Made by a program: the position numbers and the translations under genes | Assembly (NCBI GenBank): GCA_958295925.1 | Contig: CATQHL010000001.1 | Coordinates: 152,676-216,675 of the forward strand | Reading direction: 5' to 3' | Origin: an uncultured Acidimicrobiales bacterium | Lineage (GTDB): Bacteria > Actinomycetota > Acidimicrobiia > Acidimicrobiales > CATQHL01 | Length of the DNA stretch: 64,000 nucleotides | Part shown: positions 2,738 to 64,000 of the stretch, one piece after another | Layout of the letters: each line of letters opens with the position of its first letter | Numbering within the stretch: position 1 is the first letter of the stretch | The notes under the pieces: generated by a model | Told to the model about the DNA's origin: nothing | What the model saw: the letters and a program-made list of their open reading frames with translations, nothing else | Databases searched by the model: none

Positions 2738-3589
2738 CTATCTGCAGTCAGCCGTTCGTGTCAATACCGGTGCGGCAGCGGCACGGACATCGATTTTTTC
2801 AAGGCAACGCAAGTCAACCTGGGTTATGAATGCCTCCACCGTGTTCAATTTCTCGCCGACGTTTCGGCTGTCCCCGAGTAACACGTAACCAGCTATGTTG
2901 AGATCCAACACTAAACCCTCATGTTCAACTTTGATTGCCCTCACGTGACCCTTCAGTGATTCATCCATCGCCCCGGCAACGCTCAAGGGTCCTTTCAGGT
3001 GGGTCATCTCCAGCCACTCCCCCGGTTGGGGGGGCTCCATCCAGAGACCTTCCACAGCCGGCAGCCCCTGAGTCAATTCGGAGTTGAGCTCGAGAACGCG
3101 TCCGTGTCCATCGATGGTCGCCCACGCCCCTGGGACTGCCAGCGCAGCCACCGGGGTTCTTTCGGTGATAGCAAAGCTCACGTCGCCCGACCAGTTGCGC
3201 TCGCTGCGCACGGACTCAACCCAGGGGAACTCCAAAATGCTTGCTTTGGCTTCATCCAGGTTCAGGCCCAGCAAGGCGTCCCCTGGCACGATTCCCGATG
3301 CCTCCAGGATGGAGTCGGCGTTAATCCGATTTACGCCGCTCACACCCAGGGAGTCCACGTCCATGTAGCTGCTCTGGCTGAACCAGAACAGGAAAGCCGC
3401 TGTTGCGCCCAATATGGCCAGCGTCAAGAGTGTGATCTGACGTCTTGCAAGGGGATCCCGGGTGCTTCTCGCAGTTGTCCCCGTCGCTGTCTTGGCGGTT
3501 TGGTTCGCCTCGTCGGGATTTCCTTCCGGCCTCTTGGCGGGCGTCCGCACGTGAGGTGCTCCGAGGGGGGGTGCGTGGATGGTTGTCAT
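2738..3589 (-). CDS. ftsQ: Cell division protein FtsQ (POTRA domain)
   Basis: A single TM segment (LLTLAILGATAAFLFWF) is followed by a POTRA-like region (VSGVNRINADSILEASGI ... FPWVESVRSER). I set the start at ATG 3589, which overlaps the murB stop (ATGA). The longest ORF reaches 3622. Confidence 0.8.
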   Translation of the reverse strand: MTTIHAPPLGAPHVRTPAKRPEGNPDEANQTAKTATGTTARSTRDPLARRQITLLTLAILGATAAFLFWFSQSSYMDVDSLGVSGVNRINADSILEASGIVPGDALLGLNLDEAKASILEFPWVESVRSERNWSGDVSFAITERTPVAALAVPGAWATIDGHGRVLELNSELTQGLPAVEGLWMEPPQPGEWLEMTHLKGPLSVAGAMDESLKGHVRAIKVEHEGLVLDLNIAGYVLLGDSRNVGEKLNTVEAFITQVDLRCLEKIDVRAAAAPVLTRTADCR

Positions 3590-36810: not shown

Positions 36811-37170
36811 GGCGAGCCGGCCGGGCGGCCGCGCCGTCGGGCCTCTGGCAGGTCACGGCGGTGAGGAAGGTCGGGGCTCCGCAGGACGACGGCGCTGGCT
36901 AAGCCAGTCGAGGCGACTCGCAGGAAAGTGCCACAGAAACAAACCGCCGACGGCTCCAGCCAGGGCCGGGCAAGGGTGAAAAGGTGCGGTAAGAGCGCAC
37001 CGTGTCTCGGGCAATCGGGGCAGCTAGGCAAACCCCGCCGGGAGCAAGGTCAAGCAGGGGGAGGTGGTCCGCCGGCGCCGGAAGGCGCAACCCCCGGGTA
37101 GGCCGCTTAGATGGATGGCCGCACAGGGCATCAGTGCCTGGACAGAACCCCGCCTACAGGCCGACTCGCC
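36811..37170 (+). ncRNA. rnpB: RNase P RNA, bacterial type A
   Basis: Conserved blocks GAGGAAGGTCGGGGCTCC (P4 5' side), AGGGTGAAAAGGTGCGGTAAGAGCGCACC and ACAGAACCCCGCCTACAG (P4 3' side). The P1 helix pairs GGCGAGCCGG with CCGACTCGCC. Confidence 0.9.
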
Positions 37171-37220
37171 GTCGCCCCCCACCGCGCTGCGGGCCGCTGC
37201 GGTGCGGGGTCGTGCAGGGG

Positions 37221-38279: not shown

Positions 38280-38353
38280 TGGGCGCTGACGGACTTGAAC
38301 CGCCGACCCCTTCCTTGTAAGGGAAGTGCTCTGGCCTTCTGAGCTAAGCGCCC
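38280..38353 (-). tRNA. tRNA-Val (anticodon TAC)
   Basis: Cloverleaf read by hand: acceptor GGGCGCT/AGCGCCC, D arm GCTC..GAGC, anticodon stem-loop CTTCC-CTTACAA-GGAAG, T arm GGCGG-TTCAAGT-CCGTC. CCA is not encoded. Confidence 0.9.
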
Positions 38354-39961: not shown

Positions 39962-40034
39962 TGGGCTCGGTGGGGATCGAACCCACGACCAAACGATTAT
40001 GAGTCGTCTGCTCTGACCACTGAGCTACGAGCCC
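39962..40034 (-). tRNA. tRNA-Met (anticodon CAT; elongator type, or possibly Ile2 if lysidinylated)
   Basis: Acceptor GGGCTCG/CGAGCCC, D arm GCTC-AGTGGTCA-GAGC, anticodon loop CTCATAA, T arm GTGGG-TTCGATC-CCCAC. It lacks the three G-C pairs of an initiator anticodon stem. Confidence 0.88.
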
Positions 40035-40049
40035 GCATTCGCCGCTCGG

Positions 40050-40122
40050 CTCCGGGGGTGGGACTCGAACCCACAACAAACGGCTTAACAGGCCGCTGCT
40101 CTGCCAATTGAGCTACCCCGGA
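40050..40122 (-). tRNA. tRNA-Asn (anticodon GTT)
   Basis: Acceptor TCCGGGG/CCCCGGA, anticodon stem-loop GCGGC-CTGTTAA-GCCGT, T arm GTGGG-TTCGAGT-CCCAC. Confidence 0.9.
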
Positions 40123-45063: not shown

Positions 45064-47157
45064 GTGGCGTGCCCTCCCCGCCTGGCCTCAGCCGCGGCTT
45101 CGCCCTGTGACACCGCCAAGAGCGGCCTTTGGGCGCTCAAGGGGCGGCTGCCAGCCCCAGTGTGTCCACTAACCCCCACAAGGGTGACCACTAGCCTCTT
45201 GGCGGTGGCCTCGCACCTCCCCGACCTGGAAGCCGACAGCCTGGAAGCCCTCGCCCGGGCGGTTGACGCGCTCGGCGATGAGGGGGAGCGCCGGGCGCAG
45301 CAGGAGGAGATGACCGCCGCCGTGTCGAGGGCGATTGTCAATGACGGCCACTTGGCGGTGAGGGCGGGCACCGGCGTCGGCAAGTCCCTGGCATACCTGA
45401 TCCCGGCAGCCCTCTCCGGCCGCAGGACGGTCGTGTCCACCGCCACCCGGGCGCTTCAGGACCAGCTCAACAGGAAAGAGCTTCCCTTTGTGGCCGAACT
45501 CCTTCCCCCCCGCTTTGGGGAGGGGAAGGACCGCCCGCTGCGATGGGTCGTCCTCAAGGGTCGCTCCAACTACCTGTGCCTGCAGCGCCTCGAGGAGGAG
45601 CTTGAAGGCAGGCTTCTGCCGAGCGGCGGGCACGGCTTTCCTGAAGGCGGGCTCGAAACCTTCATCGAGTGGTCGAAGATCACCAGCACCGGCGACCGAA
45701 GCGAGTTCCCCGGCAGGCTGCCCGCCGAAACGTGGGCCCGCTTCAGCGTCTCCTCCAATCAGTGCCCAGGCAGATCCCTCTGCCGGCACGGCTCTCAGTG
45801 CTTCACAGAGCAGTCCCGCAGGCACGCCCGGCAGGCGGATGTCGTGATAGTGAACTCCGCGCTGTTGGCGACCTCCTTGACTGGAACCGAGTCGGTCCCG
45901 TCCCCCGACCTTTTTGTGATTGACGAGGCCCACGCCTTCGCCGAGGTCGTCTCCAGGATTGCAGGCGCCACCCTGCACCATGCCTCCTTCGAAGAGGTGG
46001 CGAAAGCCGCCGAGTCCGTCGAGGAAGGTCTCGGGTCACCCTTGAGGAACTCCGGGGCGCAAATCGCCCAACACCTCGAAAGGCACGCAGGGCAGTCCGT
46101 GAGCCCTGATGAAGCCCCCGACCTCTGGGACGCCCTGATACTGGCCGGCGAGCGCCTCGCGGAAGCCCGCCAAGGCCTCATGGACAACCAGACGATGGAG
46201 CTCATCTTCGACGCCGAGGTCGCCAAGCGGAGCGGAGAGGCCCGCAGGCAGCGCTCCATTGCGACCGCCGGGGCCCTGCGCGAGGAAATCAACCGCTTCC
46301 TCGATCCTGCGGAGGGATGCGCGATGTTCGTGGATCGGCATGCCCACAGCCTGCGCCTCGCCCCCCTCGATGTCTCGGAACTGCTGCAGGACGGCATGTA
46401 CGAGGGCGCAACCGTGATACTCACCTCGGCGACCCTGGACGAGTCAGCGCCGGCCAGCCTCGGGCTTAACGAGGACAGCCACCAGTACCTCGACCTGGGA
46501 AGCCCTTTCGACTACCGAAAGGCGGGGCTGTTCTACTGCGCCGCCCACCTCCCGGGACCGAGGGATGATCCCTTTGTCCGCAACGATGCGCTCGCCGACG
46601 AGCTGGAGGAACTGATCAACGCCGCGGGAGGCCGCACCCTGGCGCTGTTCACAAGTTGGCGGGTTCTGGAGGAGGTGCACGGGAAACTGGAGGGGCGGCT
46701 GCGCTGGCCGCTGTTGAGGCAGCAGACCCACCAGGCCACCCCTGCCGCCGAGTTTCTCAGGGAGTTCGCGGCGAACAAGGACGCCTGCCTATTCGCAACG
46801 ATGTCCTTCTGGCAGGGGGTGGACGTGCCGGGCCCGTCGCTGTCGCTGGTGGCGCTGGACAAGCTGCCGTTCCCACCCATGAATGACCCCCTTATCAACG
46901 CCAGGAGGGACCACGCAGGCCGCGACAGGTCCTTCGCCAAGGTCGACCTGCCACACTGCGCCGTGCTGCTGGCTCAGGGTGCGGGGCGTCTTATCCGCAG
47001 TTCCGGGGACAGGGGGGTGGTGGCGCTGCTTGATCCCCGCCTGCCCAAGGCCGGGTACCGCAACGAGGTCCTAAAGCTGATGCCACCATTCAAGCGGACG
47101 ATCGACAAGGGGGATGTGCTCGCTTTTCTGAGAGGACTCCGCAGGGAAAGCCCCTGA
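45064..47157 (+). CDS. dinG: DinG/XPD-family ATP-dependent DNA helicase (Fe-S type)
   Basis: Walker A GTGVGKSLAYL, DEAH box VIDEAHAF, Cys cluster (YLCLQRL, CPGRSLCRHGSQC) and a helicase C-terminal domain (QGAGRLIRS). The true start is probably downstream of 45064. Confidence 0.85.
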   Translation: MACPPRLASAAASPCDTAKSGLWALKGRLPAPVCPLTPTRVTTSLLAVASHLPDLEADSLEALARAVDALGDEGERRAQQEEMTAAVSRAIVNDGHLAVRAGTGVGKSLAYLIPAALSGRRTVVSTATRALQDQLNRKELPFVAELLPPRFGEGKDRPLRWVVLKGRSNYLCLQRLEEELEGRLLPSGGHGFPEGGLETFIEWSKITSTGDRSEFPGRLPAETWARFSVSSNQCPGRSLCRHGSQCFTEQSRRHARQADVVIVNSALLATSLTGTESVPSPDLFVIDEAHAFAEVVSRIAGATLHHASFEEVAKAAESVEEGLGSPLRNSGAQIAQHLERHAGQSVSPDEAPDLWDALILAGERLAEARQGLMDNQTMELIFDAEVAKRSGEARRQRSIATAGALREEINRFLDPAEGCAMFVDRHAHSLRLAPLDVSELLQDGMYEGATVILTSATLDESAPASLGLNEDSHQYLDLGSPFDYRKAGLFYCAAHLPGPRDDPFVRNDALADELEELINAAGGRTLALFTSWRVLEEVHGKLEGRLRWPLLRQQTHQATPAAEFLREFAANKDACLFATMSFWQGVDVPGPSLSLVALDKLPFPPMNDPLINARRDHAGRDRSFAKVDLPHCAVLLAQGAGRLIRSSGDRGVVALLDPRLPKAGYRNEVLKLMPPFKRTIDKGDVLAFLRGLRRESP

Positions 47158-62667: not shown

Positions 62668-63115
62668 GATGCGAACATTCAATTTGGACGTAGACGCGCT
62701 GCGCAGTTTCCTGCACCTGCTCAGCGTCGGCGTGTGGATCGGCGGTCAGATCGTCGTGGCCGGCCTCATCCCCATTGTCCGCAAGGTCAGCAACCAGGTC
62801 GCAACACCCGAGGGCGAAAAGACGGTCACCCAGAAGATCGCCCACAGGTTCAGCCGGATCGCCTGGCCCTTCTTCGCGCTTGCGATCATCACGGGACTCT
62901 GGAACCTCGAGGCGGTCGCCCCGGAGTGGGGGAACACCTCCCTTGGCTGGAAGGTGGGCTTCTTTGCGAAGCTCGTCCTCGTGGCTCTCTCCGGCGTGGG
63001 CGCCTGGCTGCACGGCAGGGCGCGTCGGCCGGCTGAGCGGGCGATCTTTGCTTCGCTCGCCTCGCTCTCCGCCCTTGTGGCGCTGCTGCTGGCCGCCAGT
63101 TTCAACGTCACCTGA
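62668..63115 (+). CDS. Hypothetical 4-TM membrane protein (CopD-like pattern, tentative)
   Basis: LHLLSVGVWIGGQIVVAGL resembles CopD-type helix 1. ATG at 62668. Confidence 0.45.
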
Positions 63116-63189
63116 ACGCTCCGGCCAGATCAGCAGGCACCCTGCAGCGGGCGCCTGCATCCTCTCCCAACCCGCTCCCCACCTCGGGC

Positions 63190-63393
63190 CTATTCGGTGT
63201 CCGAGGTGGAGTCCGAGCCTTTCCTGAACGCCCGACCGACAAGCCTGCCCAGGCCCCTCAGGAGCTTGCCGATCGCAATGAAACCATGCTTAAGGAGCTT
63301 GCCGACTCCTTTGGCCAGGACTTTTATCAGCTTGCCCACGCCCTTGAAGATGGTCTTGAGGAGCTTGCCAATTCCGCTGAAGAGTCTTTTCAT
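63190..63393 (-). CDS. 67-aa cationic peptide built from 11-residue amphipathic repeats
   Basis: Sequence: MKRLFSGIGKLLKTIFKGVGKLIKVLAKGVGKLLKHGFIAIGKLLRGLGRLVGRAFRKGSDSTSDTE. The ATG shares its A with the TGA of the upstream TrmH gene (TGATG). It is preceded by GGAAAGGAAGG, a strong Shine-Dalgarno. Third codon positions are mostly G/C. Confidence 0.55.
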   Translation of the reverse strand: MKRLFSGIGKLLKTIFKGVGKLIKVLAKGVGKLLKHGFIAIGKLLRGLGRLVGRAFRKGSDSTSDTE

Positions 63394-64000
63394 CAGCCTT
63401 CCTTTCCGTTCGCCTCGCCTTTCGGCTTTTGTTTTATCACGTGCTCGCAGACCCACGCGTACATCGCTATGCCGCTGGCCACCCCGGCGTTGATGGAGCG
63501 CGTCGAGCCGAACTGCGTGATGCAGCGCATCGAATCGCACGCCTCCACCGCCTCCGCCGACAGCCCCGGCCCCTCCTGCCCGAAGAACAGCACGCAGAGC
63601 TCAGGTGGCGGGCTGGTCTCCAGCGGCTCCGCCCCTGGCATGTTGTCGATACCGACGACAGCAAGCCTCTCACCCTCCGCCCATGACCTCAGGTCGGACA
63701 CGTCGGGGTGGTGGAGCACGGTCTGGTAGCGGTCGGTGACCATCGCCCCGCGCCGGTTCCAGCGCCTGCGCCCCACGATGTGCACCGCCCGCGCCCCGAA
63801 GGCATTTGCGTTGCGAACCGCCGCCCCGATGTTGAGGTCGTGCCGCCAGTTCTCGATGGCCACGTGATAGGGGTGGCGCCGAGCCTCGAGGTCTTCCACT
63901 ATCGCGTCGTGTCGCCAGTAGCGGTATCGGTCGACCACGTTTCGACGGTCACCGCCGGCCAGGAGAACGGGATCGAGGCGGGGGTCGTCCGGCCAGGGCT
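63393..64000 (-). CDS. TrmH/SpoU-family RNA 2'-O-methyltransferase (5' end probably beyond the window)
   Basis: NIGAAVRNANAFGA, FGQEGPGLS and GSTRSINAGVASGIAMY motifs. The frame stays open upstream of the ATG at 63938 to the window edge. Confidence 0.85.
   Translation of the reverse strand, partial: PWPDDPRLDPVLLAGGDRRNVVDRYRYWRHDAIVEDLEARRHPYHVAIENWRHDLNIGAAVRNANAFGARAVHIVGRRRWNRRGAMVTDRYQTVLHHPDVSDLRSWAEGERLAVVGIDNMPGAEPLETSPPPELCVLFFGQEGPGLSAEAVEACDSMRCITQFGSTRSINAGVASGIAMYAWVCEHVIKQKPKGEANGKEG

Follow-up and report, generated by a model that had tools for sequence, protein, structure and literature searches.

Can an open reading frame (ORF) whose product looks like a linear antimicrobial peptide be a genuine gene of a housekeeping operon and, if so, where would that product act? 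The question is raised by a small ORF on the minus strand (positions 63190–63393) of a 64,000-nucleotide stretch of contig CATQHL010000001.1 from an uncultured Acidimicrobiales bacterium, which is referred to here as the window. The ORF runs from an ATG (63393–63391) to a TAG (63192–63190) and is translated into 67 amino acids (aa), MKRLFSGIGKLLKTIFKGVGKLIKVLAKGVGKLLKHGFIAIGKLLRGLGRLVGRAFRKGSDSTSDTE, which comprise an N-terminal MKRLFS, five 11-residue repeats (residues 7–61) and a polar acidic tail, SDSTSDTE. An earlier description made from the letters alone (the sequence-only reading) had taken the product to be a translationally coupled cationic peptide of amphipathic repeats, and translation and recounting agree with its sequence and with its balance of 16 Lys/Arg against three Asp/Glu. 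The ORF is very probably a translated gene, it belongs to a small family confined to one bacterial clade, and its product is tentatively interpreted as a cytoplasmic helix that would bind to or perturb membrane surfaces.

Homologues at the same chromosomal slot

Relatives of the ORF were retrieved by synteny: orthologues of the protein encoded by its convergent neighbour, a CopD-like gene, were identified, their contigs were fetched, and the related loci were examined as 10-kb stretches. A small ORF occupies the same slot in the same orientation in every CopD-relative contig that reaches far enough. Five further distinct homologues of 53–63 aa were obtained from related uncultured genomes (loci L084, L085, L087, L088/89 and L090), which, together with the window, make six members in four sub-lineages. 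The homologous genes lie downstream of, and co-oriented with, the methyltransferase gene trmH, and are convergent to the CopD-like gene. The 63-aa ORFs of L084, L085 and L090 may be summarized as MKEIFSTLG(R/K)FIKALLKG.GKL.K.L.RYAGKALKGV.KGLGKA.KGLFGK....SSKTE.S. and the 53-aa ORFs of L087 and L088/L089 as MKEFW.FLKRLLGGLWKLLK..LK.VGKILGK.F..LGKLLG.SS.KKES... respectively. The homologues are collinear with the window peptide at 40–50% identity, and gene callers had annotated the ORF in L084, L085, L088, L089 and L090. The gene order in L087–L090 is ABC-2 permease, ABC ATPase, membrane protein, MDMPI and CopD-like, followed on the opposite strand by the peptide, trmH, HlyIII and DUF1015.

The upstream cistron in the window is the 3' part of a gene for an RNA 2'-O-methyltransferase of the SpoU/TrmH family (63393–64000, minus strand; PF00588, E = 3.7e-22), the product of which is 62–72% identical to orthologues across Actinomycetota among the matches listed. 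Its TGA stop (63393–63395, minus strand) has one base in common with the ATG of the microprotein gene (TGATG), and a Shine-Dalgarno (SD)-like sequence read from the letters, GGAAAGGAAGG, lies within the last trmH codons (63397–63407, minus strand). The starts in the family are preceded either by a GAAAGGAAG ribosome-binding site or by a GTGA stop/start overlap: in the window, L087 and L088 a GAAAGGAA(G/A) motif stands 7–10 nt before the start, and in L084 and L090 the trmH stop and the microprotein start form a GTGA overlap. The proposal that the ORF belongs to the trmH transcription unit is borne out by the overlap in the window and by the same slot and orientation in the homologues. Translational coupling, which had also been proposed, is supported in the window by the TGATG overlap and GGAAAGGAAGG but is not a constant of the family, the genes in L087 and L088 being separated from trmH by gaps of 32 nt and 105 nt and having their own SD. 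On its other side the slot is bounded by the CopD-like membrane protein gene (62669–63115, plus strand, 148 aa; PF05425 at E = 4.9e-6, under the Pfam cut-off), which is a conserved neighbour and not a demonstrated partner.

No family match above threshold was obtained from Pfam, NCBIfam, PHROG, PADLOC and PDB, in agreement with the earlier statement that no described family has this repeat. An index of 5.8 billion proteins returned nothing at E ≤ 10, with either the single sequence or a 3-sequence profile, since in a database of that size about 45% identity over a 67-aa query falls short of significance. An exhaustive phmmer comparison with 1.84 billion representatives yielded no more than sequences of similar periodicity, namely a tape measure protein, a protein of SGDGKLNKE repeats and the extension of a SecE homologue, and phage, plasmid and IMG/VR collections contained no match to the microprotein. 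For small repetitive proteins, single-sequence search thus fails even against billions of sequences, and synteny-guided retrieval works.

A scan of JGI metagenomes found nothing with the peptide alone, and only locus L086 with the family alignment. On this low-GC metagenome contig (L086:1440–1613) a 57-aa hydrophobic peptide, MKRIFSGIGVLLLTILKWIGMIILGALRLILELAKFFLLLFGLVARVFLAFVRAGTP, with a AGGAAGGAA SD, is encoded after an actin-like (ALP/ParM-type) partition gene. It has in common with the window peptide the first nine residues, MKR(I/L)FSGIG, and the 11-residue spacing of Lys/Arg. As it is neither amphipathic nor cationic, its membership of the family is doubtful; the resemblance could be a coincidence, or could reflect a plasmid toxin-like peptide.

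Coding evidence and choice of strand

Between close pairs of homologues, dN/dS in the peptide frame is 0.08–0.30 (Fisher p from 5e-3 to 9e-10), which is the same range as that of the neighbours in the same pairs (0.09–0.17 for the CopD-like gene and 0.14 for trmH). The frame, the start, the repeat register, the charge and the type of tail are kept across a divergence at which synonymous sites are saturated. The codon-usage score of the ORF in the window is 0.39 bits/codon, as compared with a mean of 0.45 for 67-codon windows of real genes and with 0.21 at the 99th percentile of wrong frames, and the sense frame ranks first of the six by this measure in the window, L087, L088 and L090. The sequence-only reading had staked the ORF on conservation of its frame in related genomes, and the frame is conserved there; its view that the ORF is genuinely coding is upheld by the purifying selection on the homologues and by the gene-like codon usage. 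Judged from these sequence comparisons, it is very probable that the ORF is a translated gene.

The strand requires separate consideration, since an opposite-strand ORF (63197–63493; 98 aa, rich in Pro, Ser, Leu and Arg) might be the real gene and the peptide frame its mirror image. The two frames have the wobble position in common, so that the antisense frame has the same GC content at third codon positions (GC3, 0.77) and a dN/dS of 0.10–0.26, and in every homologue it stays open over most of the region. GC3 and dN/dS therefore cannot separate the strands, and the call rests on codon usage, the SD, the conservation of starts and stops and operon logic. In bits/codon, codon usage gives the antisense frame 0.003 in the window, -0.28 in L087, -0.05 in L088 and -0.04 in L090, and the peptide frame 0.39, 0.21, 0.25 and 0.15, respectively. 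The antisense ORF contains a stop in L087, its ends are unconserved (51 to 137 aa), and its overlap with the trmH 3' end varies from 53–248 nt to none. No SD precedes its GTG, and gene callers picked the peptide frame. Its whole-chain hydrophobic moment has a z of only 2.4, as compared with 4.6–7.5 for the peptide frame, and is thus without strong phase-coherent amphipathicity. That the opposite strand carries the gene, an alternative which the sequence-only reading had itself raised, is therefore extremely improbable.

It may also be asked whether the sequence has any function at all, as opposed to being repeat-expanded intergenic or 3' untranslated sequence that has simply remained open, or the decaying remnant of a tape measure gene from a phage. 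Short tandem repeats fill the slot in L087 and L088, no gene was called at the slot in L087, and the exact peptide is missing from a collection of 15 billion proteins, so that it was apparently uncalled in its source genome. The peptide resembles tape measure repeats, and the local GC content falls to 52–53% at the ORF. This dip is attributable to the Lys/Leu/Ile/Phe composition, for GC3 stays at 0.77. Against a lack of function stand the dN/dS values far under 1 with significant Fisher tests, the gene-like codon usage, and the conservation of frame, start, register, charge and tail type despite synonymous saturation. Against a tape-measure relic stand the lack of phage genes nearby and of matches in the phage, plasmid and viral collections. 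We regard a non-functional origin of the frame as very improbable.

Repeat architecture and predicted structure

The repeat register of the window peptide is strictly 11 residues, with units starting at residues 7, 18, 29, 40 and 51, and a 12-residue unit is unnecessary; there are 20 identities at a lag of 11, as compared with at most 11 at any other lag. Positions 2, 5, 6, 9 and 10 of the repeat are hydrophobic and positions 4, 7 and 11 are Lys/Arg, as had been read from the letters (with Lys at the latter three), and positions 1 and 3 are Gly. Family-wide, the members have an 11-residue repeat of the form hGKhhKxhhKG, a net charge of +9 to +13, a short Ser/Thr/acidic tail and a length of 53–67 aa.

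The whole-chain hydrophobic moment (muH) of the window peptide is 0.63 at 98.2 degrees (z = 7.5), a value reached by none of 2000 shuffles. The moment spectrum peaks at 97–98 degrees in all six members, with muH between 0.43 and 0.63 and z between 4.6 and 7.5 against shuffles. This peak corresponds to an 11/3 rather than an 18/5 periodicity, in accord with the 11/3 amphipathic helix first suggested, and the hydrophobic stripe would therefore keep to one side of the helix for about 55 residues. On an 11/3 wheel the order of positions is G1, L5, h9, V2, L6, h10, G3, K7, K11, K4, x8, so that five apolar positions make up one face, with Gly at its borders, and three Lys positions make up another. 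With an 11-residue period and hydrophobic positions in phase at about 98 degrees, the peptide has the features of an 11/3 (hendecad) repeat.

There is no transmembrane (TM) segment: over 19 residues the Kyte-Doolittle mean reaches 1.04 at most, and no more than six residues in succession are uncharged, because of which no signal-peptide h-region is possible. The absence of both features had been stated before and stands. Cys is absent, there are no disulfides, and Gly makes up 18% of the residues. AlphaFold2, run on the single sequence, predicts helices at residues 4–36 and 38–60 (pLDDT 78) and a disordered tail; Foldseek found no match in the PDB to the single-helix model, as is expected for a lone helix. 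In its charge, its moment and its predicted helix without disulfides, the peptide agrees with the linear cationic amphipathic alpha-helical antimicrobial peptides (AMPs) as a physicochemical class. A long cationic 11/3 amphipathic helix is likely.

Measured over 33 residues, the amphipathic moment is highest (0.78) elsewhere in the window, at 45806–46177 on the minus strand. As a second amphipathic signal this segment was rejected, being a wrong frame antisense to a 697-aa gene (45064–47157, plus strand); it illustrates that amphipathic periodicity by itself can occur in non-coding frames.

The same periodicity admits another structural interpretation, namely a hendecad coiled-coil or polyanion-binding microprotein, which would form a straight, Lys-surfaced bundle and, by binding to RNA, ribosomes or TrmH, serve the methyltransferase as an accessory subunit or RNA chaperone. 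The hydrophobic positions 2, 5, 6 and 9 reproduce the a-d-e-h pattern of hendecad coiled coils, and the only formally significant library match is to a phage tape measure protein, in its region of 11-residue repeats, tape measure proteins being elongated helical assemblies. Yet a stable soluble bundle is made less likely by two Gly per 11 residues and a charge of +13. The strong basicity of the protein speaks for polyanion binding, but about 45% of its residues are large and hydrophobic, and its basic residues are Lys, not Arg, which is lipid-like rather than RNA-motif-like. For a partnership with TrmH speaks the stop/start overlap in the window, L084 and L090, an arrangement that is frequent for interacting subunits. 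However, L087 and L088 have lost the coupling, and a search of 85 TrmH orthologues for a cationic amphipathic tail fused to the enzyme found none, which leaves no Rosetta-stone support; moreover, TrmH works without the peptide in all other actinobacteria among the matches listed. On balance, this interpretation appears quite improbable.

Distribution and origin of the gene

In the sister loci L002 and L091, only 22–23 nt separate the stops of trmH and the CopD-like gene; in L094 and L095 the slot measures 139 nt and contains no ORF. In L092 and L093 (GCA_026702815.1 and GCA_009837005.1) trmH is absent from an otherwise conserved cluster, and at about 3465–3530 only a 64-nt gap separates the CopD-like gene from the convergent HlyIII gene, which comes next. 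The order ABC-2/ABC-ATPase, MDMPI, CopD-like, HlyIII and DUF1015 is kept in the peptide-less L002, L091, L092/93 and L094/95. Among 80 actinobacterial trmH loci listed (GTDB, ≤72% identity), there is no related or physicochemically similar ORF.

In a neighbour-joining tree of the CopD-like protein, the sequences from peptide-bearing loci form one clade (monophyletic). Taken with the absence from the 80 other trmH loci listed, this makes a single gain in the clade ancestor the simplest history. The gene is confined to one clade of Acidimicrobiia-like actinobacteria and is a clade-specific addition.

TRF detects no DNA-level tandem repeat within the ORF, and the 33-nt units are only 52–67% identical in DNA sequence, which indicates an old repeat that has been preserved as protein sequence. 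The same divergence rules out recent slippage and an assembly artefact. Between the stops of the CopD-like gene and the microprotein gene, L087:5440–5620 and L088:5476–5625 are packed with short tandem repeats (periods of 9–24 nt, two to three copies each), and a repeated GTGCGCTCAGCC motif lies at the same spacer in L082. The crowding in L087 and L088 implies that the slot is prone to repeat expansion, which may have been the route by which a gene of 33-nt units arose. Most likely, the gene originated when a 33-nt unit expanded between trmH and the copD-like gene in the ancestor of the clade.

The C-terminal tail of TrmH after GSTRSxNxG comprises 78 residues in L087 (5823–6713) and 39 in L088 (5882–6610), as compared with a median of 20 in 85 orthologues. 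Since these are the two lineages without the trmH overlap, the long tails suggest that the trmH 3' end and the junction were remodelled.

A more specific history would be birth de novo: a 33-nt unit amplified between convergent housekeeping genes of an Acidimicrobiia ancestor, gained the trmH junction or an SD, and was fixed as an endogenous effector resembling an antimicrobial peptide. This full sequence of events we hold to be rather unlikely.

Possible site and mode of action

The reading that we favour, with some hesitation, is that of a genuine clade-restricted small protein, a cytoplasmic product that would form a peripheral membrane-surface-binding or membrane-perturbing amphipathic helix. 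Its gene would be the last cistron of a (DUF1015)-HlyIII-trmH operon in an Acidimicrobiia-like actinobacterium. Lacking a signal peptide and a TM segment, the product should be made in the cytoplasm. Residues from about 4 to 60 would form one long helix of roughly 8 nm, with a hydrophobic stripe of 5/11 (positions 2, 5, 6, 9 and 10) in phase over the full length, flanking Gly (positions 1 and 3) and an opposite Lys/Arg stripe (positions 4, 7 and 11), and the 7–10-residue Ser/Thr/Asp/Glu tail would remain disordered. With 18% Gly and a charge of +13, the free peptide is expected to be unfolded in water. By analogy with peptides of the magainin/melittin type and with lipid binders made of 11-residue repeats, it may fold on contact with anionic lipid, such as phosphatidylglycerol, cardiolipin or phosphatidylinositol. 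The helix would then lie flat in the interfacial zone of the cytoplasmic membrane and act as a peripheral membrane-binding or membrane-perturbing factor.

Binding to membrane surfaces is, on this analogy, probable. That the peptide acts on the producer's own membrane, and not after export, is a weaker suggestion, possible rather than probable: there is no export signal and no co-varying transporter, which makes the cytoplasmic face of the producer membrane the default site. Similar cationic amphipathic repeats are found N-terminal to the SecE (PF00584) region of a SecE homologue (P0004). The known topology of SecE would place these repeats on the cytoplasmic side, which suggests that such sequences are tolerated there.

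Several considerations weigh against the proposal of a resident membrane-surface protein. If a +13 amphipathic helix accumulated, it would be expected to be toxic to the producer membrane, a property that suits an exported toxin no less. Straight coiled-coil bundles follow the same a-d-e-h hendecad pattern, which would point to self-assembly or polyanion binding. The proposal is drawn from sequence and from an AlphaFold2 model of a single sequence, and only the 10-kb loci were examined for partner genes or paralogues. The antisense frame has a low dN/dS (0.10–0.26) likewise, through the shared wobble. Finally, there are two sister clades, so that the tree alone cannot exclude one loss as against a gain.

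The principal competitor is a released, leaderless membrane-active toxin (bacteriocin-like, cytolytic or like the phenol-soluble modulins, PSMs), which would permeabilise the anionic membranes of competitors by a carpet or toroidal-pore mechanism and leave the cell through a non-adjacent or co-opted transporter (e.g. the ABC-2 system 2 kb away) or by lysis. The physicochemistry of the family, with a net charge of +9 to +13 and muH of 0.43–0.63, is that of linear cationic helical antimicrobial peptides; over residues 7–29, 14 of 23 positions are identical to MSI-594, a magainin/melittin hybrid, and a spider AMP family gave a sub-threshold match. Such a peptide should harm the cell if kept in the cytoplasm, and the exporters of PSMs are not adjacent to the psm genes either. 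The toxin can also draw on the occurrence of candidate AMP small ORFs near genes for ABC transporters and the ribosome machinery: in AMPSphere, such ORFs are enriched beside genes of these two kinds and are mostly without homologues (bioRxiv 10.1101/2023.08.31.555663).

Several observations stand against the toxin. The presence of the peptide is not tracked by any transporter, immunity or regulator gene. The sequence-only reading had put forward the four-TM (CopD-like) gene and the ABC-2 exporter as candidate immunity or export partners; this suggestion finds no support, since the same order is found in the peptide-less sisters, and genes that occur with or without the peptide are not dedicated to it. 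The peptide gene is co-transcribed with, and partly translationally coupled to, a housekeeping methyltransferase, and no bacteriocin, PSM or lysis family of Pfam, NCBIfam or PHROGs matches it. Some 55 helical residues in 11/3 phase are far longer than bilayer-spanning pore formers and are like surface-lying lipid binders. The conserved polar tail is atypical of a toxin, and the genomes are small (2.4–2.8 Mb). No result here specifically favours a bacteriocin, and we consider a released toxin unlikely, although it deserves to be kept in mind.

Other features of the window

The trmH frame is open to base 64000 (..PWPDDPRLDPVLLAGGDRRNVVDRYRYW..) and runs off the window end, so that the gene is partial in the window. 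A GTG-started ORF of 181 aa is an N-terminally truncated view of it; the orthologues have 217–296 aa, with variable, low-complexity N-termini.

Between the two convergent stops, a GC-rich hairpin with a 10-bp stem may be drawn at 63133–63158 on the minus strand (GCAGGCGCCC-GCUGCA-GGGUGCCUGC). It is possibly a terminator without a U-tract, a weak assignment, given a z-score of only -1.4 for the region. Consensus scans found no terminator and no promoter-like site on either strand, and an Rfam scan of 62900–63600 gave no match. Elsewhere, the window contains a class A RNase P RNA (36813–37172, plus strand; 207 bits) and three tRNA genes (38280–38353, 39962–40034 and 40050–40122, minus strand), which confirm the chromosomal context.

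Implications

The family adds a conserved microprotein under purifying selection to the uncultured Acidimicrobiia, in which small proteins are almost unstudied, and indicates that an ORF resembling a designer antimicrobial peptide can be a stable member of a housekeeping operon. Sister genomes of the same synteny, in which a 22-nt gap takes the place of the gene, provide a comparative system for the birth of small genes in bacteria. If the peptide is active, it would offer a natural scaffold of 53–67 aa for the design of membrane-active peptides. The locus would be notable if the product were shown to be an endogenous membrane-active effector, or the gene a documented birth through repeat expansion. 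Should the reading as a de novo effector be true, this would be the first bacterial hendecad-repeat membrane-active peptide, with a birth that could be reconstructed from sister genomes with and without it.

Comparison with known systems

With magainin 2, melittin and MSI-594 the microprotein has in common the GIGK start, a Lys/Leu-rich amphipathic helix, Gly at the polar/apolar boundary and the absence of Cys. The best sequence match in the PDB is MSI-594 itself (2k98/2l36), with 14 of 23 identities over residues 7–29, but at E = 0.23 it is not significant and indicates convergence, not homology. The microprotein differs from these peptides in being two to three times longer, in its five exact 11-residue repeats and acidic polar tail, in its bacterial origin and synthesis in the cytoplasm without a precursor, and in its place in a housekeeping operon.

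Leaderless class II bacteriocins (of the aureocin A53/lacticin Q, enterocin L50 and aureocin A70 types) are likewise small, cationic, leaderless, helical, ribosomal and unmodified, and the present family, with 53–67 aa and +9 to +13, is small and cationic and has no leader or signal peptide. These bacteriocins are compact, Trp-rich, saposin-like bundles of 30–53 aa with dedicated ABC transporter or immunity genes, often on accessory elements. In contrast, the helix of the microprotein is linear and made of repeats, and no gene tracks its presence; the nearby genes, being kept in peptide-less genomes, supply no dedicated transporter or immunity function. None of the members tested matched a family of such bacteriocins in Pfam or NCBIfam, even at E ≤ 1.

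PSMs and delta-toxin resemble the microprotein as core-genome, leaderless amphipathic helices that damage the producer if unhandled and whose exporter is non-adjacent. PSMs are 20–44 aa long, weakly charged, non-repetitive, Agr-regulated and restricted to staphylococci, and there is no homology between them and the microprotein. A type I toxin or small hydrophobic membrane toxin, which would have a single TM helix and an antisense or overlapping sRNA antitoxin, is not indicated either, there being no TM segment, no Rfam match in 62900–63600 and no promoter-like site on either strand.

The only match with E < 1e-10 among the 1.84 billion representatives (phmmer, E = 1.7e-11) is P0002, a 999-aa protein that PHROGs identify as a tape measure protein. 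The peptide aligns to its repeat zone (F-x-G-x-G-K) in many registers at 30–35% identity, which indicates that the similarity is periodic and that the score comes from the shared period and the GxGK core; the match of the peptide to a PHROG tape measure profile (phrog_305) is weak (E = 0.0075). The repeats of tape measure proteins are not cationic-amphipathic. Tape measure proteins have hundreds of residues and belong to a tail module, whereas the microproteins have 53–67 aa and lie in a housekeeping context, with no phage genes in any 10-kb locus. Common origin with tape measure repeats is doubtful.

The SecE homologue P0004 (L081:6001–6477), from the low-GC genome GCA_965309465.1, is encoded directly upstream of nusG. 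Its SecE region is preceded by an extension of about 90 residues in which cationic amphipathic IGKV/LK repeats follow one another, and PHROG tape-measure profiles match this extension weakly. The extension resembles the microprotein in its cationic IGKV..K repeats and composition (hhalign probability 85% over 18 columns). It differs in that its repeats are fused to a SecE transmembrane anchor and in that it comes from an unrelated, low-GC organism; the resemblance is periodic and covers a short stretch.

The 11-residue lipid-surface binders, namely the N-terminus of alpha-synuclein, the exchangeable apolipoproteins, the perilipins and the group 3 late embryogenesis abundant (LEA) proteins, match the microprotein in 11/3 periodicity, in a hydrophobic face that stays in phase over more than 50 residues and in small residues at the interface. 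No Pfam match to synuclein, apolipoprotein, perilipin or LEA families was found, the only sub-threshold one being to Phasin_2 (E = 0.02–0.1). The microprotein is set apart by its hGKhhKxhhKG consensus, as compared with the KTKEGV type, by a far higher positive charge, by a wider hydrophobic face and by its bacterial origin. The microproteins are thus a new sequence family of a known physicochemical kind, which stands outside every described family.

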